This document shows, piece after piece, positions 4,861 through 52,522 of a DNA stretch of 64,000 nucleotides. A model generated the notes under the pieces. That model was not told where the DNA came from, did no database searches, and saw only the letters and a program-made list of their open reading frames with translations. This DNA is from Candidatus Moraniibacteriota bacterium (GTDB taxonomy: Bacteria > Patescibacteriota > Minisyncoccia > Moranbacterales > UBA2206). Position 1 is the stretch's first letter, and every line of letters begins with the position of its first letter. The stretch lies in NCBI GenBank assembly GCA_963775955.1, contig CAVZKT010000003.1, forward strand, positions 14,805 through 78,804, in the 5' to 3' direction. Position numbers and translations under genes: made by a program.

Positions 4861-4967
4861 AGCATGGGCGGGACAAAAATGGCTTGAAACAAGCCTTTTT
4901 AATTTGCTTAAAAAGGGAAAGGAATGTATAATAGGGGCAGTAATCAGTGATTAGCAAGAGTAACTTT

Positions 4968-5702
4968 ATGGAAAAGGAAATTAAAATTAACACTAGAAAC
5001 GGCAAATATATTTATGGCAAACTGCAGGGCTCGCTCAAAAATCCGTTAATTATTTTTGTGCATGGCCTGACCGGCTATATGGACGAGCACATTTTTTATA
5101 ATGGTGCCCGTTTTTTTGAGAAAAAAGGTTTTTCTACTTTTCGTTTCAATCTGTATGACTATTGGGATAATGCCAGAAAATTACATGAATGCGACCTAAA
5201 AACGCACTCTGGCGACCTCAACCGGGTAGCAGAATATTTCCAACGCAAAAAAGTCGGCGACATTTATGCTATCGGCCACAGCTACGGCGGACCGACAATC
5301 CTGTTGTCAAAAACCAAAAAATACAAAGCACTCATCCTGTGGGATCCCAGCTTTCACCTCAAGGAGCTTTTTAAAAATAAAAAATATTCCAAAGAATTTA
5401 AGGGATATTTCAAAGAGTGGAGTTTGATGTTTTTTGTTGGCAGTAAGTTTGTGGCGGAAGCCGAAAGATTGGCGGACGCTTATTGGCGCCTAGTCGGGAA
5501 AAATAAAGCTCCAACCAAAGTCATTTTGGCAGGGAAAGGAAACGCGCAATTTCCCCAAAAACATAATTTTTTTGGCGCGCTGAATGATCCAAAAGAGATA
5601 ATTGAACTGAAGGGGGCCGGGCACACATTTAGTGAGGATGGGATGGAAGAAAAACTTTTTGCAGAAACCTTAAAGTGGCTTAATAAATATAGAAAAAAAT
5701 AA
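4968..5702 (+). CDS. Alpha/beta-fold hydrolase
   Basis: Nucleophile elbow GHSYGG, upstream oxyanion-like HGLTG, C-terminal GAGHTF. Extended -10 TGTATAAT at 4925-4932. ATG 4968 is in frame with track start 4947. Confidence 0.7.
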   Translation: MEKEIKINTRNGKYIYGKLQGSLKNPLIIFVHGLTGYMDEHIFYNGARFFEKKGFSTFRFNLYDYWDNARKLHECDLKTHSGDLNRVAEYFQRKKVGDIYAIGHSYGGPTILLSKTKKYKALILWDPSFHLKELFKNKKYSKEFKGYFKEWSLMFFVGSKFVAEAERLADAYWRLVGKNKAPTKVILAGKGNAQFPQKHNFFGALNDPKEIIELKGAGHTFSEDGMEEKLFAETLKWLNKYRKK

Positions 5703-6580: not shown

Positions 6581-6678
6581 TTACGCAATTAGTTACTTAC
6601 ATAAAAAACCTTAGTAGGGGATGAACTTACCAAAAACCAAGTCCTAAAAAATAATTAATACAAAAATCATCCTTAAAA

Positions 6679-6708
6679 CATCCTTACAAACTGGAGTTTG
6701 TAAGGATG
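6679..6708. promoter_or_regulatory. Palindromic operator-like site upstream of the ArsR-like gene
   Basis: CATCCTTACAAAC-TGGA-GTTTGTAAGGATG. The right arm overlaps a -35-like TTGTAA (6698-6703), 16 nt before the extended -10 TGGTAGAAT (6717-6725). Confidence 0.6.
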
Positions 6709-6752
6709 TAAAAATGTGGTAGAATAGACTAGGAAAAAATAATTCAAAAACT

Positions 6753-7061
6753 ATGTTGGCTAAAAAACACAAAGTTGAAAGAAAAATAAAATCTCCAAAG
6801 CAAATGGAACGACATTTAAAGGGCATGGCCAATCATTATCGTATTGAAATATTGATGATTATCGATAAAGACAAGAACATCACTTTGGATGGAATAATTG
6901 AGAAAATTGGTGCCAACTCTAAGACGATCGGGGAGCACACGCGAAAACTCCATCAAGCAGGGCTGGTCAATAAGAGATACCGCGGCAAATTTGTGGAGCA
7001 TGCGCTATCCCCATATGGTAAAAAATTTGTCCGGTTTCTCAAATCATTCCAGCGCATATAA
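6753..7061 (+). CDS. ArsR/SmtB-family winged-helix transcriptional regulator
   Basis: 102 aa. LKGMANHYRIEILMII...ITLDGIIEKIGANSKTIGEHTRKLHQAGLVNKRYRGKFVEHALSPYG fits the ArsR-type HTH plus wing pattern. No obvious metal-binding Cys motif. Confidence 0.75.
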   Translation: MLAKKHKVERKIKSPKQMERHLKGMANHYRIEILMIIDKDKNITLDGIIEKIGANSKTIGEHTRKLHQAGLVNKRYRGKFVEHALSPYGKKFVRFLKSFQRI

Positions 7062-7095
7062 ATCATCCTTACAAACTGGAGTTTGTAAGGATGAT
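7062..7095. promoter_or_regulatory. Second copy of the same palindrome (15-bp arms)
   Basis: ATCATCCTTACAAAC-TGGA-GTTTGTAAGGATGAT starts 1 nt after the regulator's stop. It ends 17 nt before the TATAAT of the extended -10 TGTATAAT (7111-7118). Confidence 0.6.
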
Positions 7096-7146
7096 TTATC
7101 ATTGTGAAGTTGTATAATTAACGAAATAAATAACAGTTTTATATTT

Positions 7147-10452: not shown

Positions 10453-10462
10453 AGCCTTATGA

Positions 10463-10586
10463 ACCCCGCACTAAACTTTCCGATGTAGAGCATAGGTTTG
10501 TGTTCGCGGGGAATTATTGAAATTATTAACATTTTCTGCTATTTTTCAAAATTATTTGAGAAGTATTCGGAAAGTTAGTGCGGGGT
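10463..10586 (+). repeat. Long-range inverted-repeat element, copy 1
   Basis: ACCCCGCACTAAACTTTCCGA (10463-10483) is complementary to TCGGAAAGTTAGTGCGGGGT (10567-10586, one bulge). The interior is 83 nt. The 3' arm contains GTG 10585. Confidence 0.85.
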
Positions 10587-11727
10587 GAAAATTGGAATCG
10601 ACGCCCGTTTTTACGGGCCTTTAGGCAAAGGGCTGGGGCGCTATACACAAAAATTGATAGAGAATCTGGAGAAAATTTCCGGTGCGGAGGCAAATCCTAA
10701 AAATCAATATTTTATCCTTCTTCGCAAAGAAAATTTTGCTGAATATCAGCCAGGAAGCCGGAATTTTCATAAGATTTTGGCTGATTTTCCTTGGTATACG
10801 TTTTCAGAGCAAATTCGCATGCCAAGACTGCTTAAAAAGCTCGAGCTTGACCTGGTTCATTTTCCCCACTTTAATGTGCCTCTTTTTTATTTTGGGAAAT
10901 TTATCGTTACTATTCATGATTTAATCCTGCTTCATTTTCCGACCGTAAAAAGCACGACACTTCCAGCTGTTTTTTATTGGCTGAAATTTTTTGCTTATAA
11001 AATTGTGATTAGCTCGGCTGTTCGCCGCGCAAAAAGCATAATTGCCGTGTCAAGATTCACCAAAGCTGACATCCTGAAAAATTATCGCCGGATTTCAGCC
11101 GAAAAAATAACCGTGACCTATGAAGCCTGCGATGATTATTGTTTTTTTAATCCAAGGCCGGCTGAAGAAATTCTTCCGCGGTATGGTATAATAAAACCAT
11201 ATCTGCTTTACGTGGGAAATGTATATCCCCACAAAAATCCAGAGAGGCTTGTTTTGGCGCTGAAGCAGTTGGAAAAACAAATCCCTGAGTTGCGGCTGGT
11301 TTTTGTCGGGGGAGAGGACTATTTTTACGCGCGCCTCAAGAAGTTTGTGAATTTGGAAAAAATCAACAATATTATTTTCGCCGGTTTTGTTCCAGATCAT
11401 GATCTTGATGTCGTTTTTAAAGAAGCAGTGGCTTACGTGCGGCCCTCGCTTTACGAAGGCTTTGAATTGCCGCCGCTTGAAGCAATGGCCAGGGGAGTTC
11501 CGGCAATATGTTCTGATCATAATTGTGCCCGCGAAATTTTGGAAAATAGTCCGGCATATTTTAATGGAAAAAATATTGAGGACATTTCACGTGTGATAAA
11601 AAATGTCTTTATGGACGCGAGTCTTCGCGAAAGTTTGATAAATAAAGGCTATATTCAATCTAAAAAATATAGCTGGCAAAAAATGGCGCAAGAGACGCTT
11701 ATGATTTACCAAAACGCAACAAAATGA
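10585..11727 (+). CDS. GT4 (group 1) glycosyltransferase
   Basis: GTG start giving (M)KIGIDARFYG. Motifs VGNVYPHKN, PSLYEGFELPPLEAMARGVPAICSD. Confidence 0.9.
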   Translation: MKIGIDARFYGPLGKGLGRYTQKLIENLEKISGAEANPKNQYFILLRKENFAEYQPGSRNFHKILADFPWYTFSEQIRMPRLLKKLELDLVHFPHFNVPLFYFGKFIVTIHDLILLHFPTVKSTTLPAVFYWLKFFAYKIVISSAVRRAKSIIAVSRFTKADILKNYRRISAEKITVTYEACDDYCFFNPRPAEEILPRYGIIKPYLLYVGNVYPHKNPERLVLALKQLEKQIPELRLVFVGGEDYFYARLKKFVNLEKINNIIFAGFVPDHDLDVVFKEAVAYVRPSLYEGFELPPLEAMARGVPAICSDHNCAREILENSPAYFNGKNIEDISRVIKNVFMDASLRESLINKGYIQSKKYSWQKMAQETLMIYQNATK

Positions 11728-15999: not shown

Positions 16000-16003
16000 A
16001 TAA

Positions 16004-16060
16004 TTAGTTTTTAGTTTTTAGTTTTTAGTTCTTAGTTTTTGGTTCTTAGTTTTTGGTTTA
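16004..16060. repeat. Short tandem repeats (TAGTTTTT x3, then a roughly 15-nt unit x2)
   Basis: Read directly from the sequence. The last unit plus GCAAAAACTA (about 16063-16072) forms a 9-bp hairpin after the murJ stop. Confidence 0.8.
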
Positions 16061-16250
16061 TAGCAAAAACTATTGATATGTTTGGATTTCCATATGTGGA
16101 CATGTGGAAATGTTTTAATTTTATTGTTTGGTGGTCGTATCAATCTACATTATTATCTATGTAGATATCTCAGTAGATGTAATTCTTACACTTGGCCACA
16201 TATGGAAGCATTGCTTTGAAAGTAAAAAGGGGACTAACCGCCTGCTTTCC

Positions 16251-16288: not shown

Positions 16289-18233
16289 ATGGATCAAAAC
16301 AACGTTCGTAATTTTTGCATTATTGCTCATATTGACCATGGGAAGTCGACTTTGGCCGACCGGCTTTTGGAACTCACAAAAACCGTTGAACATCGCAAAA
16401 TGAAAGAGCAAATGCTGGACCAAATGGATCTGGAGCGGGAACGCGGCATCACCATAAAATTGCAGCCGGTAAGAATGAAATATGATTTAAATGGTAAAAA
16501 ATATATTTTAAACTTAATTGATACTCCGGGACATGTTGATTTCAACTATGAAGTTTCCCGGTCTTTGGCGGCCGTGGAGGGCGCAGTACTCCTGGTGGAC
16601 GCGACCAAGGGCGTGCAAGCGCAGACGCTTTCAAATTTATATTTAGCCATTGAACAAGGGTTGGAAATAATTCCGGCGGTTAATAAAATTGATTTGTTTA
16701 ACGCCAATGTCGCGAAAACCAAAAAAGAAATCGTTCATATTCTGGGTTGCCAGGAAGAAGAAATTTTGGAGGTTTCCGGAAAAACAGGGCAAGGCGCGGA
16801 CAAACTTTTGGAAAAAATTGCAGAAGTTGTACCGGTGCCGGCGGGTAAAAAAGAAAAACCTTTGCGCGCGCTCATTTTTGATTCAAAATATGACACCTAT
16901 AAAGGAGTGGTAGCTTATGTGCGCATCGTGGACGGAAAAGTCAAACGGGGCGATAAAATTTTCATGATGGCGGCTGAAGCCGAAAGTGATGCTGTGGAAG
17001 TGGGCTTTTTCAAGCCCGGTTTTGAACCAACCGAGGAACTTACGGCCGGAGATATCGGCTATATCGCCACCGGATTTAAAAGCGTTGAAAGCTGCCAGGT
17101 AGGAGACACGATAACAAATTCCAAAATCCAAATCTCAAATTCCAAACCCCAGGAAGCAGAGCGGGGCTCGCTACGGGGCAGGCAAATCCAAAATTCAAAA
17201 TCTAAAATTCAAAATTTTGTAGAACCATTGCCTGGCTATAAAAAAGTTACTCCGATGGTTTATGCTTCGTTTTATCCGGTGGAGGGCGATGATTATAATT
17301 TTATGCGCGACGCCTTGGAAAAATTAAAACTAAACGACGCGGCTTTTACTTTTGAACTGGAAAGCAATTTAGCTTTAGGCAGGGGATTCCGCTGCGGATT
17401 TCTCGGGATGCTGCATTTGGAAATAATCCAGTCGCGCCTGGAGCGTGAATTTGAAATCAGCCCGACCATTACCACTCCCAGCGTTGTTTACGAAGTGGAA
17501 CTGCGTGGTAAAAAAGTGAGCGAAGAAAAGGTTTACCCTGTTAAATCCGCCATAACGGGCGGTCCCGCTTCGCGGGAATTTAACAGGGCAAGAATTTATT
17601 CGCCAACTGAATTTCCTGATCCGTCGGCCATCGAAAAAATTTATGAACCTTACGTGAAACTGGATATTATTTCGCCGAGCGTTTATTTGGGCAACATTAT
17701 GGATGTGATGAAAAATACGCGCGCTGAGTATTTAAATACGGAATATATCGACGCAGAAAGGCTAGTTCTGACTTTTGACTGTCCGCTCACGGACGTTATT
17801 ATCAATCTCCATGATGATCTTAAAAGCGCTTCATCCGGCTACGCTTCGATGAATTATTTTATTACTGAATACAAGCCTTATGACTTGGTAAAATTGGATA
17901 TACTGGTAGCCGGAGGAAAAAATTGAGGCTTTTTCGCGCATCGTGCCCCGCGAAAGGGCGTTTAGCGAAGGCAAAAAAACGGTGGAAAAGCTCAAGGATT
18001 CCATTCCGAAGCAGAACTTCCAGATCGCGCTCCAGGCGGCCATCGGCGGAAAAATAATCGCTCGCGAAACCATTAAGGCTTTCCGGAAGGATGTTACCAG
18101 CGGGCTGTATGGCGGGGACGTCACGCGCAAGCGAAAACTGCTGGAAAAGCAGAAAAAAGGCAAGAAAAAAATGAAAAACATCGGCCGGGTTTCCATCCCG
18201 TCCGAAGCTTTTTTGTCGGTTTTAAAAAAATAG
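16289..18233 (+). CDS. lepA: Elongation factor 4 (LepA), one frameshift near the 3' end
   Basis: Motifs [32 protein letters not shown]. The C-terminal tail [53 protein letters not shown] lies in the frame of 17943. The switch is in an A-run at about 17917-17922. Confidence 0.95.
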
Positions 18234-38946: not shown

Positions 38947-39813
38947 ATGCGTATAAAAAAGGCCATTTTGCCTGTGGCTGGATTTGGCACCAGATTCCTG
39001 CCAGCAACAAAATCCCAGCCTAAAGAGATGCTTCCGGTTGTAGACAAACCGGTTATCCAATATCTCGTGGAAGAAGCAGTCGCATCCGGCATTGAAGAGA
39101 TAATTTTTGTAACTGGACGCGGCAAAAGAGCTATTGAAGATCATTTTGACGTCTCTTATGAGCTGGAAGAAACTTTGGTGGAAAAAAATAGGCACGATCT
39201 TTTAAAAGAAGTGCAAAAAATTCCCGGGCTGGCCAAATTTTCATACGTTCGCCAGCCCATGCCCCTTGGAGACGGGCATGCTATCTTGCAAGCAAAACAT
39301 CTCATTGGAAACGAACCGGTTTTGATAATTTTTGGTGATTGCATATATGACAGTAAAGTCCCGGCAGCAAGACAGCTAATTGATGTGTACGAAAAATATG
39401 GCGATTCAGTCATTGGCATGAGCCAGGTTGCCAGGGACGAAGTCTCAAAATTCGGAGTCCTTGAGGGCATCAATCTGGGAGACGGCGTTTACGAAATTAA
39501 GGGAATCACAGAAAAGCCAACACCAGGAGAAGCTAAATCAAATTTAGTTGCCGTCGGAAAATATGTGATAACGCCTGAAGTAATGGAAACCCTGGCAACC
39601 ATGAAAAGCGGAAAATCGGGTGAAATTCGCCTGGCCGACGCTTTTAATATAATGCTTGAAAATAATCGGCCATTGTATGGAAAAGAGCTGGAAGGCGAGT
39701 GGTTGGATACTGGAGATAAATTTAACTTTATAAAAGCCACTATAAAAATAGGGCTTAAGCATCCGGAAGTGGGCGAGAATTTAAAAAAATTTCTTAAAGA
39801 ACTGAATAAATGA
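38947..39813 (+). CDS. galU: UTP--glucose-1-phosphate uridylyltransferase
   Basis: Motifs KAILPVAGFGTRFLPATKSQPKEMLPVVDKPVIQYLVEEA, GRGKRAIEDHFD, VRQPMPLGDGHAI. Confidence 0.9.
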   Translation: MRIKKAILPVAGFGTRFLPATKSQPKEMLPVVDKPVIQYLVEEAVASGIEEIIFVTGRGKRAIEDHFDVSYELEETLVEKNRHDLLKEVQKIPGLAKFSYVRQPMPLGDGHAILQAKHLIGNEPVLIIFGDCIYDSKVPAARQLIDVYEKYGDSVIGMSQVARDEVSKFGVLEGINLGDGVYEIKGITEKPTPGEAKSNLVAVGKYVITPEVMETLATMKSGKSGEIRLADAFNIMLENNRPLYGKELEGEWLDTGDKFNFIKATIKIGLKHPEVGENLKKFLKELNK

Positions 39814-39914
39814 ACCCCGTTAGAGTTTTAATATAAGTAATGGGGGATTATATAATAATATTTTTTAAGTTTTCGCTATTGGTAGAGTTCAATGGCGCAA
39901 AACTCTAACGGGGT
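39814..39914 (+). repeat. Long-range inverted-repeat element, copy 3
   Basis: ACCCCGTTAGAGTTTT (39814-39829) / AAAACTCTAACGGGGT (39899-39914). The arms are 16/16 identical to copy 2 while the interior differs. Confidence 0.9.
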
Positions 39915-41034
39915 GAAAATTGCGATTCAAGCGGCGGATTTGGACCATGACAGAATAGACGGCACCCGGGTTTATATTTTAAATTGTCTGAAATATTTCG
40001 GCGAACTGGATCCGGCCAGTGAATTTTTGATTTACCACAAAAAGGAATTCAATCCCGAATTGGCGCCGCCCAATTTTTCGAATTATAAAATTAAAAAAAT
40101 TTACGCCCCGCTTTTTTGGACGCAGACCAGATTTGCCTGGGAAATCAGGAAAGACAAGCCGGATATATTATGGATGCCGATGCACAACGCGCCGCTGCTT
40201 TGCCCGAAAAAAATAAAAACAATCGTGACTATCCACGATCTGGCGTTCAAATATTTTCCCGAACATTTTCCTAAAAAGGATTTACTGAAAATCAACCTGC
40301 TCACCCGCCTTGCCATCAGGAATGCCGACGGCATAATTGCGATTTCCGAATCTTCCAAAAAAGACATTCTTAAATTTTATCCCGGGACGCGAGCCGAAAA
40401 AATCAAAGTTATTTACCATGGATTTGATTCGGAGGTTTATGAACAAGAGCGAGATTTGGCCAAAGAAAAGGAGATTAAGGAAAGACTGGGAATACGGGGT
40501 GATTATTTGCTTTATATTGGGGCAATTCAGCCGCGCAAAAACCTGGAGGTTTTTATCGAAGCCTTTAATTTAATTAGAACCAGACAAAAAAGCAATTTAA
40601 GCCTGGTTTTTGTTGGAGAAAAAGCCTGGTTGAGCAAAAATACCCTAAAAAAAGCTACTTTTAGCCCCTTTAGTCAGGACATTAAGATGCCCGGAAGGGT
40701 CAAATTTTGCGATTTGGGACATCTTTGCCGGGGAGCCAGAATATTCGTCTTCCCGTCTCTTTATGAGGGTTTTGGCATACCACCATTGGAAGCTATGGCG
40801 GCGAAAGTCCCGGTAATTCTGGCCAATAATTCCAGTCCTCCCGGAAGTGGGCGGCGAGCGCTGCGCTATATTTTGAAGTCCGGCAAAACCCGAAGGATTT
40901 GGCGCAAAAAATTGAAATAAGTTTTGGGAAACGAAAATTTGCGCGCCGCGATGATTGCTAGAGGCTTAGAGCAAATTAAAAAATTTTCCTGGGAAAAATG
41001 CGCCCGGGAAACACTGGACTATTTAAAGAAGTAA
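39913..41034 (+). CDS. GT4 (group 1) glycosyltransferase, three clustered frameshifts near the 3' end
   Basis: GTG 39913 gives (M)KIAIQAADL. Motifs IGAIQPRKN, PSLYEGFGIPPLEAMAAKVPVILANNSS. The reading then passes through LPEVGGE / AALYFEVRQNPKDLAQKIEI / VLGNENLRAAMIARGLEQIKKFSWEKCARETLDYLKK in three successive frames (about 40845-40925). Confidence 0.8.
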
Positions 41035-41136
41035 CCCCGTTAGAAAAATGACTAAGCCCGCAACCGCATTGTGAATATTTTTGTTTTTTGTAATTATAGT
41101 TTCCTATAAATTATTTTGTCATTTTCTAACGGGGTT
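41033..41136. repeat. Long-range inverted-repeat element, copy 4
   Basis: AACCCCGTTAGAAAAATGAC (41033-41052) / GTCATTTTCTAACGGGGTT (41118-41136), with one bulge. Lies between convergent genes. Confidence 0.85.
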
Positions 41137-41548
41137 AACTATTCTTGTCCGGCAAAGCGAAAGTTTTATAGAAAAATAAAATGATGGCAAAAACTGCCAG
41201 CGAGAAAATGGCGGTTTCGATAAGTCCCAGGCTGCGCAGGGAATTGATAATTAAAAGAAGCGATATTGAAAGCAAAAGAAGCATCGTTTTATTTTTGAAA
41301 ATATTTTTTTCGCTATACGTTTCAAAATTAATATCATTTTTTCTCCCAAACCAGACAATCAAAAATAAAATAGCAAAAAGAACCAGAATTATTTTAGTAA
41401 AACTAAGATGGGCTGAAAAAAATCCGGGCACCAGGCTTTCCAGGACAAGCAGTCCGGCAAATACAAAAATCCACAAAAACAGGATGTCGTTTAGTAATTT
41501 ATACAGCAATAACTTCAGTTGTTTTTTATTATTAGGTTGCATAACCAT
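41135..41548 (-). CDS. Small 4-TM membrane protein, unknown function
   Basis: 137-aa hydrophobic ORF, coupled to the upstream gene by overlap. Confidence 0.55.
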   Translation of the reverse strand: MVMQPNNKKQLKLLLYKLLNDILFLWIFVFAGLLVLESLVPGFFSAHLSFTKIILVLFAILFLIVWFGRKNDINFETYSEKNIFKNKTMLLLLSISLLLIINSLRSLGLIETAIFSLAVFAIILFFYKTFALPDKNS

Positions 41549-42836
41549 AATTAACTAAAAGTCTGCGTTTTATTTCCGAAAGAATATCGCGCATATTTTC
41601 CCAATTTAAATTCCGGTAAAATTTTACATTAGCCTCGGCTAATAAAACTCCGCTGGATTTTTTCATTTCAAACTGATAATTATTCCCGGAAAATTGTTTG
41701 ATATTTTTGAGCGCTATGGCGCACTGGTATGAACGAAGTGGCCAGATTTTTTTGGCAAGATTGCAGGAACCCCCAAAATCCAGGCTTTTTTCCTGCACTT
41801 CAATCAGGCTTCTTTTGAGATAGCTTTTGAGAATTTCCACACCCCTGATTTCAAATTTTTGTCCGCCGCTTACCAAATAATATTTCCCAATATCTGAGGC
41901 AAAAAAAATTGTTCCATCCGGGTGGGGCCGGTCAAATGAAAAAATCTTGTCGCGTTCGTAAAGGCCGATTTCCTCTTCGCTGACCGGCAAAACATCCTCC
42001 CATTTGTAGCCAAAAGATAAAAAGGTCACTGGATTATTAAAAGGTACGACTTTTCCGGAAACCACCGCAAAGACTCCAATATCAAAAGAAAGCAGGGATC
42101 CGTCGGCAAAACCAGTGGCCTCCTCGCTTATTGTGTAATTTTTGCTGAAATTTTCGTCTTTTCCCAGTGCCTGATTTTTTTCGTAACGGGATAGATACGC
42201 CTTTTCACTGATAAATGGAATGAGTATTTGGTTTTTCATTTGATAGTATGTCTCGCCGATTAAAAATAGTGTTCCGTCGGGAAAAAGTTTCGCATCTGAA
42301 ACATCGGCATCCCTTTCACTGAAACTTAACTCTTCTGCGGCGGCTTCCTGAAAAGCATTCTCCGGGTAGCTCATTGCCAGCGCCAATGCCAATGACTGGA
42401 ATTTGCGCAGTTTTCCGGCGGAAATAATATAATATTGCCCGCTATTTTTCACCAGACTGCCTTCCGGAAAACCTGCCGGCACCGGGGCAGTCGGATAGGT
42501 GAAAGCTTGGTAGGTTTTTCTGATTTTAACTTCATCGCCCGCAATTGTGGAAGATTTTTCATTCAAAGCAACTTGGATTTTTGTGTCGGAAAAGTTTTCT
42601 GCGGAATAAGCGTTAAAAATAACTTTGCCTGACCGGGTATCGTCCACGCCCAAAGTATTTTCCTTGGCGCCTAAATTGGATAAATTTATAAAATAATCCT
42701 GAATAGGGAAAAAAATGCGGTAAAAAAAATAAATTACCGCGGCCATAAATACCAGCGACAAAATAAGGCGGGCAAAAAGGTAGCGTTTTTGCCAAGGTGT
42801 TTCCAGCGCGACATTTTTTGTCAGGTCAAATTTCAT
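41532..42836 (-). CDS. Membrane-anchored protein with four internal repeats, unknown function
   Basis: N-terminal TM. The motif [PA][DE]G[ST][LI]...Y[YL]...G...F recurs four times: PEGSLVKNSGQYYIISAGKLRKF, PDGTLFLIGETYYQMKNQILIPF, ADGSLLSFDIGVFAVVSGKVVPF, PDGTIFFASDIGKYYLVSGGQKFEI. Confidence 0.6.
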   Translation of the reverse strand: MKFDLTKNVALETPWQKRYLFARLILSLVFMAAVIYFFYRIFFPIQDYFINLSNLGAKENTLGVDDTRSGKVIFNAYSAENFSDTKIQVALNEKSSTIAGDEVKIRKTYQAFTYPTAPVPAGFPEGSLVKNSGQYYIISAGKLRKFQSLALALAMSYPENAFQEAAAEELSFSERDADVSDAKLFPDGTLFLIGETYYQMKNQILIPFISEKAYLSRYEKNQALGKDENFSKNYTISEEATGFADGSLLSFDIGVFAVVSGKVVPFNNPVTFLSFGYKWEDVLPVSEEEIGLYERDKIFSFDRPHPDGTIFFASDIGKYYLVSGGQKFEIRGVEILKSYLKRSLIEVQEKSLDFGGSCNLAKKIWPLRSYQCAIALKNIKQFSGNNYQFEMKKSSGVLLAEANVKFYRNLNWENMRDILSEIKRRLLVNYGYAT

Positions 42837-44599
42837 TTTTTTAGCAGATATAATTTTCCGGAAACTGTGATTCTTTGTTCGGATGGGAGAATTACTCGCG
42901 AATGAAAGGCCAGATTCTTATTAAAAATATTCGACTGCAGAAAATTATTTTCCAGCGTATAACTTTTCACCGGTTCCATTCGCTCAAGCAGCCCGCTTTT
43001 TTCATAAAAACCCAGTCGGTTGTCAGGAATGATAAAGTAGATTTCCGGGTAGTTATGGATGCTTAATTTATCCAAATCAGCGGGGTTCAAAAAATAAACC
43101 GCTTGTTTTCCAAAAACATATTGGAGTGGTCCGGCCATCATTGACCAGCCGTCGCCTGAAGCTTGCTGATCAACTAAAATCAAATCAGAATTTGAAAAAT
43201 TCGGAAGCATTTGGGCTACTCCGGATAAAAGCTTTTGATGGGGGATTACCGGCAGGAAGCGGACCATTAAAAAAAGATTGAGCGCCAGCATCGCGCCGGA
43301 AAACGCGTAAAAAAACGCCCGTTTTTTAAAAAAACCGTCAAGAAGCAGGGTAGTATAAAACACGCCAGCCGGAATGATGGAGAAGGCAAACCGGCGGAGC
43401 ATCCAGGGGTGGTCGGCGGAAATGTTTGGGAAAATCAAATAGATAAAACTTGGCAAGATAATTAAGAAAGGAATGGCCGCTTCTTTGTTTTTTTTCAAGA
43501 TATAAAGCAAGCCGGCAAAGCCAAAAAGCAAAAAATTCAGAAGATAATAGGCGAAAAGAACTTTGCCGGCATAGAGAGCGGAATTCCAAAGACTGTTTCC
43601 AATATCGGCAGCGCTTGAATAGCCGGAAAAGGGTTTTATCGCTCCCTTGATTAGCGCGATGAAAAACTGGCTGTCAATCGCAATAAAAATGGCATAAATC
43701 GCCGCTATGCCGGCAAGAGTCCAAAGAATTTTCCGGCCAACCAAAATTCGAAATTTTTCTCCTATCCATCGCGCCCTGAAAAACAAAAAAATAATCATCA
43801 CTGCCAGAAACGCCAGCGCTTCAACGCGGGCAAAAGCTAGAAGCCCGAATGCTAAAAAAGATAACAGGAGATAATATCTTTTTTCTTCGCGGAAATATTG
43901 GACGAAAAAAAGTATGCCCAGCCACACCAGCGCGAGCGCCATATTTTCACTCAGCGTAAATTTAGAAAACCAAAAAACCGGAAAAGCGGTAATAATCAGA
44001 AACAATCCGAAAAAAGCGGAAGACGGACGGAGATAAATCCGCGCCAGAAAATAAAATGCCAGGGCGAAAAGAAGCAGTAAAATCCCGTTAGCAAAGGCGA
44101 AGCCGGCCAGGCCGAAAAATGAATAGAAAACCGCCAGCCAGGAAATATAACCGAGCGGAAATTGGGTGACAAGCTGCCCGTCGGAAGCGTAGTTGAATCC
44201 GGGGAAATTAAGGGCCTGGCCTTCTCCATAAATCCGGAAAAATTCCTGCTCGGCCGGAAAAGAAAATTTAAGACCGTGGTTTTGCGCGAGGCTGATGGCC
44301 GCGCCGCTCAAAGACCCCTGGTCGCGCCCGGAAAAAATTGTTGGCGTCGAGAAAATTAAAAAAATAATAATCAGCGAAACTGAAAAAATCAAAACATACA
44401 GAAAATGCCGGTTTATTTTTTTGATTTCCTCCCAGTTGAAAAAAAACAAAAAGGTCAGCGCGGCCAGTCCCAGCAAAAAATAAGCTTCCAAAAAAGCCTT
44501 GTAAAAAGCCCCGATGAGCGTAAGGGTAAGGCCGAGCCAGCCCAAGCCGATCCAAAAAATAGCAAAGGCGGCGAATAATTGAGATTTAGAAAGTTTCAT
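42833..44599 (-). CDS. Putative GT-C fold membrane glycosyltransferase (ArnT/PMT-like)
   Basis: About 12 TM helices and a first extracytoplasmic loop (FSGRDQGSLSGAAISLAQ), followed by a C-terminal soluble domain. The assignment is by architecture only. Confidence 0.5.
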   Translation of the reverse strand: MKLSKSQLFAAFAIFWIGLGWLGLTLTLIGAFYKAFLEAYFLLGLAALTFLFFFNWEEIKKINRHFLYVLIFSVSLIIIFLIFSTPTIFSGRDQGSLSGAAISLAQNHGLKFSFPAEQEFFRIYGEGQALNFPGFNYASDGQLVTQFPLGYISWLAVFYSFFGLAGFAFANGILLLLFALAFYFLARIYLRPSSAFFGLFLIITAFPVFWFSKFTLSENMALALVWLGILFFVQYFREEKRYYLLLSFLAFGLLAFARVEALAFLAVMIIFLFFRARWIGEKFRILVGRKILWTLAGIAAIYAIFIAIDSQFFIALIKGAIKPFSGYSSAADIGNSLWNSALYAGKVLFAYYLLNFLLFGFAGLLYILKKNKEAAIPFLIILPSFIYLIFPNISADHPWMLRRFAFSIIPAGVFYTTLLLDGFFKKRAFFYAFSGAMLALNLFLMVRFLPVIPHQKLLSGVAQMLPNFSNSDLILVDQQASGDGWSMMAGPLQYVFGKQAVYFLNPADLDKLSIHNYPEIYFIIPDNRLGFYEKSGLLERMEPVKSYTLENNFLQSNIFNKNLAFHSRVILPSEQRITVSGKLYLLKK

Positions 44600-52486: not shown

Positions 52487-52522
52487 CAGCCACTACCGTA
52501 ATACTTATTACGGTAGTGGCTG
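52487..52522. promoter_or_regulatory. Perfect palindrome, copy C (16-bp arms)
   Basis: CAGCCACTACCGTAAT-ACTT-ATTACGGTAGTGGCTG. Confidence 0.65.

Follow-up and report, generated by a model that had tools for sequence, protein, structure and literature searches.

The window analysed here is a 64,000-nucleotide stretch of a Candidatus Moraniibacteriota genome (GenBank assembly GCA_963775955.1, contig CAVZKT010000003.1, positions 14,805 to 78,804, forward strand). It contains an envelope-glycan cluster with genes for GT4 glycosyltransferases, Wzy, MurJ, DUF4012 and Wzt proteins (Pfam). Within this cluster, a palindromic element of about 100 bp lies between a galU-like gene and a GT4 gene. A first-pass annotation, made from the letters alone, had listed three such elements (copies 1 to 3) and had proposed that the annotated start codon of the GT4 gene next to copy 3 is wrong. 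In this study, we examined copy 3, the family to which it belongs, and its effect on the neighbouring stop and start codons.

The 16-mer ACCCCGTTAGAGTTTT is located at 39814-39829, and its exact reverse complement, AAAACTCTAACGGGGT, follows 69 nt downstream at 39899-39914. The same pair encloses a 70-nt interior in copy 2 (30097-30112 and 30183-30198). The window holds four exact matches of the 16-mer. When up to three mismatches were allowed, five matches were found against 0.62 expected, a number reached by none of 100 shuffles; the fifth, at 16936 with three mismatches, lies within a long open reading frame (ORF) and is read as a chance match. As had been claimed, the arms of copies 2 and 3 are identical (32 of 32 positions), and the interiors have diverged to 58.8% identity (40 of 68 aligned positions). 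Both interiors retain the G-run (39842-39846 in copy 3) and the TTTTCRCTATTG box, which reads TTTTCGCTATTG at 39870-39881 in copy 3 and TTTTCACTATTG in copy 2. The TGA stop of the galU-like gene directly adjoins position 39814, also in agreement with the first-pass annotation. The palindrome that it had delimited at 39814-39914 is real, although the true ends are CCCC...GGGG at 39815-39913 and one duplicated target base had been included on each side.

A scan of the window for CCCC...GGGG hairpins returned four elements (Table 1), so that the earlier list of three was correct but incomplete; copy 4 had been missed. The sequences of copies 3 and 4 are unchanged in an independent assembly of a near-identical strain (L153). 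Copies 1 to 3 have TGAA on both sides and an A before it, giving the left flank ATGAA. Deletion of the element and one TGAA from these three copies yields ...ATGAARATT..., in which an ATG start overlaps a TGA stop. Copy 4 is abutted by the stops of both neighbours, TAA 41032-41034 (+) and 41135-41137 (-). The Wzy_C ORF upstream of copy 2 now stops at the TAG of the arm itself (30104-30106). The arms of copy 1 (CCCCG-CACTAA.../...TTAGTG-CGGGG) resemble those of the family (CCCCG-TTAGAG.../...CTCTAA-CGGGG) with the inner 6 bp strand-flipped, and its interior boxes and TGAA duplication are the same as in the other copies. Before insertion, the gene next to copy 1 would have had a TATAAT box 7 nt 5' of its ATG, and it looks leaderless.

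Table 1. Positions of the four elements and of the features around copy 3 (window coordinates)
Feature	Position	Strand	Remarks
Upstream NTP_transferase (GalU-like; Pfam) gene	38947..39813	+	stop within the left target duplicate
Displaced former start ATG	39810-39812	+	overlaps the left TGAA
Left target-site duplication TGAA	39811..39814	+	holds the galU-like stop TGA 39811-39813; removal of the element and one TGAA gives AAATGAAAATTGC, as in L001
Copy 3, element proper CCCC...GGGG, 99 bp	39815..39913	.	also in L153; site empty in L001, L156, L157
5' terminal inverted repeat CCCCGTTAGAGTT	39815..39827	+	pairing in copy 3 reaches 39829; family repeat 13 bp
G-run box, then TATAAT-like hexamer 39851-39856	39842..39856	+	with TTAATA 39828-39833, a sigma-70-like match
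Inner hairpin CGCTATTGG-TAGAGT-TCAATGGCG	39874..39897	+	predicted fold; 5' half is the TTTTCGCTATT box of the first-pass annotation
3' terminal inverted repeat AACTCTAACGGGG	39901..39913	+	
Right target-site duplication TGAA	39914..39917	+	
Probable regenerated GTG start	39913..39915	+	final G of the element joined to TG of the target duplicate
GT4 glycosyltransferase gene, proposed corrected start	39913..41034	+	at least three frameshifts around 40830-40925
Copy 1, divergent relative, arms CCCCGCACTAAACTTTCCG and CGGAAAGTTAGTGCGGGG	10464..10585	.	TGAA at 10460-10463 and 10586-10589; GT4 GTG at 10585
Copy 2	30098..30197	.	TGAA at 30094-30097 and 30198-30201; GTG of the next GT4 at 30197
Copy 4	41035..41134	.	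between convergent genes; flanks GTAA and TTAA

Orthologous loci with and without the element

Homologues of the GT4 protein are abundant in records named Parcubacteria, Moranbacteria or Patescibacteria by their sources. The orthologous galU/GT4 junction is filled in four relatives and empty in six. In L001 (84% protein identity), the junction reads CATAAATGAAAATTGCAATTCAAGCGG, which is the predicted empty site with its ATGA stop/start overlap. L156 and L157 also lack the element, and their junctions read ATGA and TAATG. L125, L154 and L155 lack the element as well, and their genes start with GTG or TTG. L002 carries an element at the same junction, and related elements occupy it in L122, L123 and L124. 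Copy 4 is present only in the lineage of the window. L001, L002, L122, L154, L156 and L157 have no such copy: their orthologous sequence matches the window minus copy 4 and one TA/TAA. The empty orthologous sites carry no footprint. Since orthologous sites occur both filled and empty, the copies are insertions rather than spacer DNA kept by conservation.

In a rough neighbour-joining tree, loci with the element are mixed among loci without it, and both left-flank types, window-like (L157) and L002-like (L001 and L156), have empty members. This pattern requires that either the same TGAA was a target more than once or copies were lost more than once without a footprint. The three empty junctions with GTG or TTG starts belong to one clade and read TTTGTGAAAATC (L125, 2576-2581), ATCGTGAGAATT (L154, 1050-1055) and CACTTGAAAATC (L155, 753-758). 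They could be natural variation or what a lost element left behind.

Between the window and L002, the interior of the element is 87% identical, similar to the adjacent GT4 coding DNA (86%). Hypervariability of interiors at orthologous loci was considered and rejected, as the divergence is about that of the flanks and the identity of the arms is imposed by the search pattern. At resident orthologous copies, the two arms have changed in concert (G:C to A:T in L002 and C:G to T:A in L124).

The element family in other genomes

The pattern ACCCCRTTAG-N65-95-CTAAYGGGGT was searched with one genome per species, which gave at least 119 loci. All family counts in this text are among the matches listed; they comprise 128 distinct copies, those of the window included. 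Position 10 of the arm, which is free in the pattern, is A:T in 124 of the 128 copies. Positions 11, 12 and 13 covary, with Watson-Crick pairs in 117, 109 and 92 copies, respectively, and four pair types at each position. From position 14 on, pairing is at the level of chance (~28%). The terminal inverted repeat (TIR) is thus 13 bp long, because pairing is kept to position 13 and no further. It can be written CCCCGTTAGA+NNN with positions 1-10 conserved, and the end pair is CCCCGTTAGA...TCTAACGGGG. The matches are not chance hits, since position 10 is conserved without being forced and positions 11-13 vary yet pair. The 11-bp termini are invariant in every copy retrieved, nine of these bases being fixed by the search pattern.

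Lengths in the scan peak near 101 bp and lie between 83 and 113 bp; individual elements of 76-122 bp were recorded, and the family overall spans about 75-125 bp. The elements have no ORF, and the arms contain stop codons. The interiors are extremely diverse and include a GC-rich subset with two inner hairpins, such as CAGCGGGGCATTAAACCCCGCCGG. A metagenome scan for the arms of copies 2 and 3, matched exactly over the 16-mers, returned 27 further copies, many with unrelated interiors. Across the family, these copies included, the arms cluster into discrete types, which the first-pass annotation had suggested checking. Nested copies were found in L091 and L098, and tandem or abutting copies in L067, L087 and L090. 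In L007, two inverted near-identical copies with mirrored flanks (2165-2260 and 4940-5035) surround a single 686-aa ORF, by eye a secreted protein; the layout resembles a composite transposon.

The titles of the records, which are labels of metagenome-assembled genomes (MAGs) and are given as such, name many Patescibacteria lineages, Omnitrophota, Deltaproteobacteria/Thermodesulfobacteriota, Planctomycetota, Nitrospirota, Cloacimonadota, Edwardsbacteria, Stahlbacteria, Clostridia and Gammaproteobacteria, about ten phyla in all. Viral contigs gave no match to the family pattern. An Rfam scan at gathering thresholds of the window and 18 loci returned only RNase P, tRNAs and rRNA and no family at the element, and E-value scans of two copies gave only matches with E >= 0.17, far below gathering scores. 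A search for tRNA and tmRNA at the element returned none. [quoted passage not shown] The family is provisionally regarded as undescribed.

Target-site duplication

Identical 4-mers flank CCCC...GGGG in 87 of 129 copies, where about one is estimated by chance. Likewise, 24 of the 27 copies with exact 16-mer arms are flanked by identical 4-mers. Because the search pattern forces an A before CCCC and a T after GGGG, the apparent TNNA target is partly an artefact. Copies at the same loci that were not selected by the pattern show TTTA, TAAA, TTAA and TGAA, and also TATG/TATG and CGAG/CGAG. The duplicated 4-mers therefore vary (TTGA, TCAA, TTTA, TGAA, TATG and CGAG), TTNA/TNAA with N = T, C or G being dominant and TTAA rare. 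A 3-bp duplication was seen only in two copies, L137 and L152. Hence, the element itself runs from CCCC to GGGG, its duplication measures 4 bp, and it prefers T/A-rich sites. An element with A...T ends, a 2-bp duplication and a TNNA target was rejected on account of the TATG and CGAG duplications of the unforced copies.

Start codon of the GT4 gene

GTG 39913-39915 is followed by KIAIQAADL, and translation from the annotated ATG 39892 runs through the 3' arm as MAQNSNG. The first-pass annotation had taken GTG as the start and had proposed an alignment of homologue N-termini as the check. Among the 120 best GT4 homologues, 103 start with M-[KRN]-[IL]-A-[IL]-Q and five more have V or L at the same residue; hence, 108 of 120 start at the residue of GTG 39913. 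Eight of the other 12 (P0001, P0005, P0016, P0019, P0020, P0035, P0069 and P0078) carry short extensions such as MAQNSNGV, MNSNRV, VLNSNRV, MGISNGV, MTLNSNGV and MALNSNGI. These extensions are the 3' arm AACTCTAACGGGGTG in translation, and the element is present at all four loci fetched among them. No conserved residues of other origin were found 5' of 39913. In the empty-site relatives, an ATG occupies the exact position of the GTG of the window. The homologue N-termini, the arm-derived extensions and the ATG at empty sites together make it well supported that ATG 39892 is no real start but comes from reading the 3' arm as coding, and that GTG 39913 is the start. In L123 and L124, the junction codon is now GTA, and the sole available start, ATG or TTG, lies within the arm a few codons from its end; the element can therefore also donate a start from within.

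At least three frame changes between 40830 and 40925 are needed for the GT4 gene to reach its conserved C-terminus at 41034. L153 is identical to the window over ~1300 nt, except for another 1-nt deletion and an 85-nt patch with ~14 differences at the same place (~40618 in L153). This zone could be a decaying gene, a recombination tract or an artefact of strain mixing.

Junction codons at the element ends

The junction codon was taken as the element's final G together with the two adjoining bases of the flank, and 280 element ends were inspected for an in-frame ORF of at least 90 codons. Such an ORF follows 27 of 54 GTG junctions, 6 of 71 GTA junctions, 2 of 43 GTC junctions and 9 of 110 GTT junctions. 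The N-termini encoded from GTG junctions begin VK... or VN..., that is, former ATG-AAR or ATG-AAY. On the opposite flank of the 27 GTG-start copies, ATGAA is found in 18, GTGAA in two and ATGA in two, so that 22 of 27 retain the displaced start. The stop of a long upstream ORF lies within the flank 4-mer 21 times and is the TAG of the arm, inside CCCCGTTAG, 11 times. As GTG junctions open long ORFs across public genomes, the placement of three window copies as apparent GT4 leaders reflects a general property of the family.

In the window, only 4 of 55 candidate starts are preceded by a Shine-Dalgarno (SD) motif; therefore, displacing the upstream region should cost little. Many genes of the window start with ATGAAA, so TGAA target sites are plentiful at starts. 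The reading frame is open across the element in only 4 of 145 copies, and in-frame translation of the element was rejected for that reason.

Interior, fold and possible expression

With RNA parameters, the four window copies fold into strong hairpins at -33 to -56 kcal/mol (z-scores -5.7 to -9.7). The GTG would be buried at the base of the stem wherever transcription includes the 5' arm. Copies 2 and 3 and those of L002, L136, L143, L133, L122 and L119 share an interior plan of G-run, AT-rich stretch, T-run and inner hairpin. Hairpins equivalent to the inner one of copy 3 occur in copy 2, L002, L136 and L143 with other stem bases, and the stems differ between copies (ATTGG/TCAAT, ATTGA/TCAAT, ATTGC/GCAAT and ATTGAC/GTCAAT). 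The G-run is 5' in all nine scorable copies at GTG gene starts, several of which are orthologues, versus 25:34 elsewhere; the orientation bias is suggestive only.

One good sigma-70-like match was found in copy 3 and none in copy 2. Among 27 gene-start copies, -10-like hexamers show no strand bias (19 versus 19). With copy 2 lacking a match and the hexamers lacking a bias, we do not claim that the element supplies a promoter. Terminator-like sites were sought in the element, and none was found.

In gene-start copies, a change confined to one arm was seen three times, and each time it leaves an A-C mismatch in the sense strand instead of a G-U pair; this gives no support for selection on an mRNA hairpin. 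In quasi-palindromes, template-switch correction can change both arms together. The concerted arm changes could thus result from selection for pairing or from template-switch correction. For identical arms around divergent loops, the first-pass annotation had offered gene conversion, mobility of the arms, or strong selection on them. Gene conversion is borne out in part by the concerted change in L002. Mobility applies in a different form: the mobile unit is the whole element with the arms as its TIRs and a 4-bp target duplication alongside, and the arms do not move alone.

Proposed origin and alternative explanations

The element is functionally a MITE, as it combines small size, TIRs, target duplication, insertion polymorphism and multiple copies. 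Copy 3 is, with high probability, an ORF-less TIR element of about 100 bp that was moved by a transposase making 4-bp staggered cuts and was inserted on a stop/start overlap, where a GTG start was rebuilt. The target was the TGAA of the ...ATGAAAATT... junction, in which the TGA stop of the galU-like gene overlapped the ATG start of the GT4 gene. The left duplicated TGAA preserves the upstream stop. The terminal G of the element, joined to the TG of the right TGAA, gives GTG-AAA, and the GT4 frame has its start at the same residue as before. Insertions of this kind presumably survive because they do little harm in a compact genome with few SD motifs, and copies would accumulate at gene starts and stops for the same reason. 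The arms probably stay constant while the interiors drift because the transposase recognises the termini, and within the palindrome each arm may also serve to correct the other. The downstream gene might be transcribed by read-through or from inside the element.

Several observations weigh against this origin. No transposase was found among the 28 Pfam-scanned ORFs of the window. All-against-all clustering of 1244 ORFs from the 119 loci listed showed that only housekeeping families recur. No long TIR pair with matching duplication encloses a transposase, and a search of the window and of 1.1 Mb from the fetched loci revealed no autonomous element that bears these TIRs. A tblastn search of the 1.1 Mb with the ISEcp1 transposase gave a best E-value of 0.28, a search that distant members would escape. 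About 20 of the 129 copies have inverted flanks (TTNA left and TNAA right), the mirror class being seen once or twice, and neither decay of the duplication nor inversion between copies accounts for them. The T and A at the ends of the apparent TNNA target are partly forced by the search pattern. Recognition by a transposase alone does not explain the concerted change of both arms in the resident copy of L002. Finally, identical 11-bp termini in MAGs labelled as about ten phyla are unusual for a MITE. Two properties of the family are uncommon: the invariance of the retrieved termini across these phyla, and ends that preserve adjacent stop and start codons. In the TTNA...TNAA class, for example in L003, L006, L016, L060, L069 and L074, GGGGTGAATC recurs on the right.

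A rival origin is a hairpin of the REP/REPIN-RAYT or IS200/IS605 (PATE) type, which is moved by a Y1 HUH enzyme as single-stranded DNA and inserts beside a tetranucleotide without a true duplication. The whole element does fold strongly, GC-rich copies have two inner hairpins, changes in one arm are matched in the other, most flanks read TTNA or TNAA and recall the target tetranucleotides of IS200/IS605, and REPINs likewise have no linked transposase. We nevertheless consider this origin quite improbable, since the flanking 4-mers are real and variable duplications that a fixed cleavage tetranucleotide would not give, the pairing ends sharply after 13 bp like a protein-bound TIR, and no Y1 or RAYT gene was seen among the Pfam-scanned ORFs of the window. 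The fold, together with the placement of three of the four window copies before GT4 genes in the same orientation, would also suit a cis-acting structured RNA (a leader, attenuator or riboswitch-like element) that is kept for its fold and is not mobile. The 9:0 orientation of the G-run at gene starts and the 87% interior identity between the window and L002, which is above what spacer DNA might show, point in the same direction. Such an RNA is very unlikely, however, given that copy 4 lies between convergent genes, family copies stand beside unrelated genes in many phyla with hypervariable interiors, orthologues function without the element, no Rfam family matches, and each of the three single-arm changes puts an A-C mismatch into the sense strand. 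Transposon features, namely target duplications and nested copies, are present as well.

The boxes GTTAGAR and YTCTAAC in the arms match the heptamers of attC R'/R'' cores (GTTRRRY and RYYYAAC), so the arms could be the binding boxes of an integron attC-like or tyrosine-recombinase site with the interior as an exchangeable cassette. The variable length, the unconserved interior and the spread over many phyla are in keeping with this idea. The order of the boxes is reversed, however, with GTTAGA first and TCTAAC last on both strands. Moreover, the flanks are 4-bp duplications, the Pfam-scanned ORFs of the window include neither a cassette array nor an integrase, and at orthologous sites only the element itself is gained or lost; an attC-like site is thus extremely improbable. 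Neutralisation of the element at the RNA or translation level, by excision from the transcript or by bypass of the hairpin by the ribosome or initiator tRNA from the old ATG to the junction, with the original ATG-AAA reading restored, was also weighed. With the element and one TGAA taken out, the sequence is again exactly ATGAAA; 22 of 27 copies keep the old ATG or GTG on the left, and the hairpin brings the two TGAA copies together. Yet retention of the ATG is automatic after insertion at TGAA, an in-frame GTG accounts for expression without a special mechanism, the interior is unconserved, and no ribozyme or intron family matches. At the L123/L124 junction, which is GTA, the only start is the ATG or TTG within the element. 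We give this explanation hardly any credence.

The element has practical consequences. Gene callers mis-start genes beside it, and upstream ORFs can gain arm-encoded tails, as Wzy_C does at copy 2; once the element is recognised, annotations can be put right in Patescibacteria and the further phyla that carry it. It also shows how a transposon can persist in very compact genomes, where its 4-mer target often lies in start or stop codons and its ends repair the damage. As the termini are invariant in the retrieved copies, the element is a tractable marker for tracing horizontal transfer between uncultured lineages of anaerobic and groundwater settings.

The mobilising enzyme

The variable 4-bp duplication favours a DDE-type cut-and-paste enzyme and disfavours Y1/HUH hairpin transposition. 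IS1380 elements make 4-5 bp target duplications. The ends of ISEcp1 (plasmid pC15-1a) are CCTAGATTCTACGT...ACGTGGAATTTAGG, of the form 5'-CC...GG-3' with inverted repeats of ~14 bp of the CCTAG...CTAGG type. IS1380, a family of prokaryotic relatives of piggyBac, is used as its outgroup (PMC10813416). For piggyBac (features in PMC7351741), the arrangement is TTAA | CCC...GGG | TTAA, with a 13-bp TIR and seamless excision. A literature search on IS1380 features returned only the piggyBac relationship. The element resembles both in its CC(C)...(G)GG termini, short TIR of 13-14 bp and footprint-free empty sites, and its duplication of 4 bp fits in length, but it differs from piggyBac in having no TTAA specificity, TTAA being rare among its duplications. 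By this analogy, we would tentatively guess, with considerable doubt, that the mobiliser is a DDE transposase of the IS1380/piggyBac type, whose gene would lie in another part of the genome or have disappeared. The family offers a lead to the mobilising transposase. The long TIR pairs noted above were rejected as autonomous elements; they are nested or tandem MITEs or a MoxR operon.

A bolder scheme is that the element is the non-autonomous partner of a seamlessly excising piggyBac/IS1380-like transposase, acts as a reversible switch at ATGAA starts of surface-glycan and other genes, and has spread horizontally through about ten phyla, including the CPR. We regard this scheme as unlikely. If it were true, the terminal G and the TAG-bearing arms would be built to preserve the neighbouring start and stop codons.

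Comparison with known elements

The Correia/NEMIS elements of Neisseria have ~26-bp TIRs, duplicate TA and are confined to a single genus. They are co-transcribed with their neighbours and can alter gene starts and expression. Like the present element, they are ~100-150 bp long, have no ORF, form a TIR hairpin and occur in many copies at gene boundaries. The present family differs in its 13-bp TIRs starting with CCCC, its 4-bp duplication, its occurrence in MAGs of about ten labelled phyla and the rebuilt GTG start. REPINs are lineage-specific, make no target duplication and are mobilised by RAYTs. They share with the present family the form of ~100-nt intergenic hairpin repeats, the lack of a linked transposase and arms that evolve together, and are set apart from it by its clear 4-bp duplications. 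Rickettsia palindromic elements are translated in frame as added peptide segments. They too are palindromic MITEs tolerated inside or beside coding regions, whereas the present element is untranslated (4 of 145 copies open) and preserves the neighbouring stop and start codons. Integron attC sites are likewise imperfect palindromes of variable length with short terminal boxes (GTTAGA and TCTAAC) in many phyla; here, the boxes are reversed, target duplications are present, and neither cassette arrays nor an integrase accompany the element in the window.

Other features of the window

On the minus strand, 41135-44599 holds three genes without Pfam domains (~135, 435 and 590 aa), convergent to the GT4 gene. 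The same trio always follows the GT4 gene in the orthologous loci L001, L002 and L122-L125.

A dTDP-glucose 4,6-dehydratase/epimerase-type gene, recognised by eye at 36130-37130, is split among several short ORFs, and a frameshift directly follows its ATG. Together with the GT4 frameshifts, it suggests that the glycan cluster is turning into pseudogenes or that the assembly contains indel errors.

Perfect or near-perfect palindromes of 15-20 bp with 2-nt spacing are located at 6678-6709, 7058-7099, 36062-36129, 37152-37183 and 52487-52522. Three of them share the core ATCCTTA(C/A)AAACT/AGTTT(G/T)TAAGGAT, and those at 36062-36129 and 37152-37183 lie just 3' of stop codons. Because a 2-nt loop is too small, they are perhaps not RNA hairpins; they may be protein-binding sites or a second repeat family.

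The spacer upstream of an EF4/LepA-like gene (by eye) contains tandem repeats of ~7-8 nt, TAGTTTT-like, at 16005-16060, followed by a 120-bp inverted-repeat structure, TTCCATATGTGGACATGTGGAA ... TTACACTTGGCCACATATGGAA, at 16088-16207. The whole structure (16000-16207) may be another small mobile element. The 64-kb window contains no tRNA gene, and RNase P RNA is encoded at 2339-2768.

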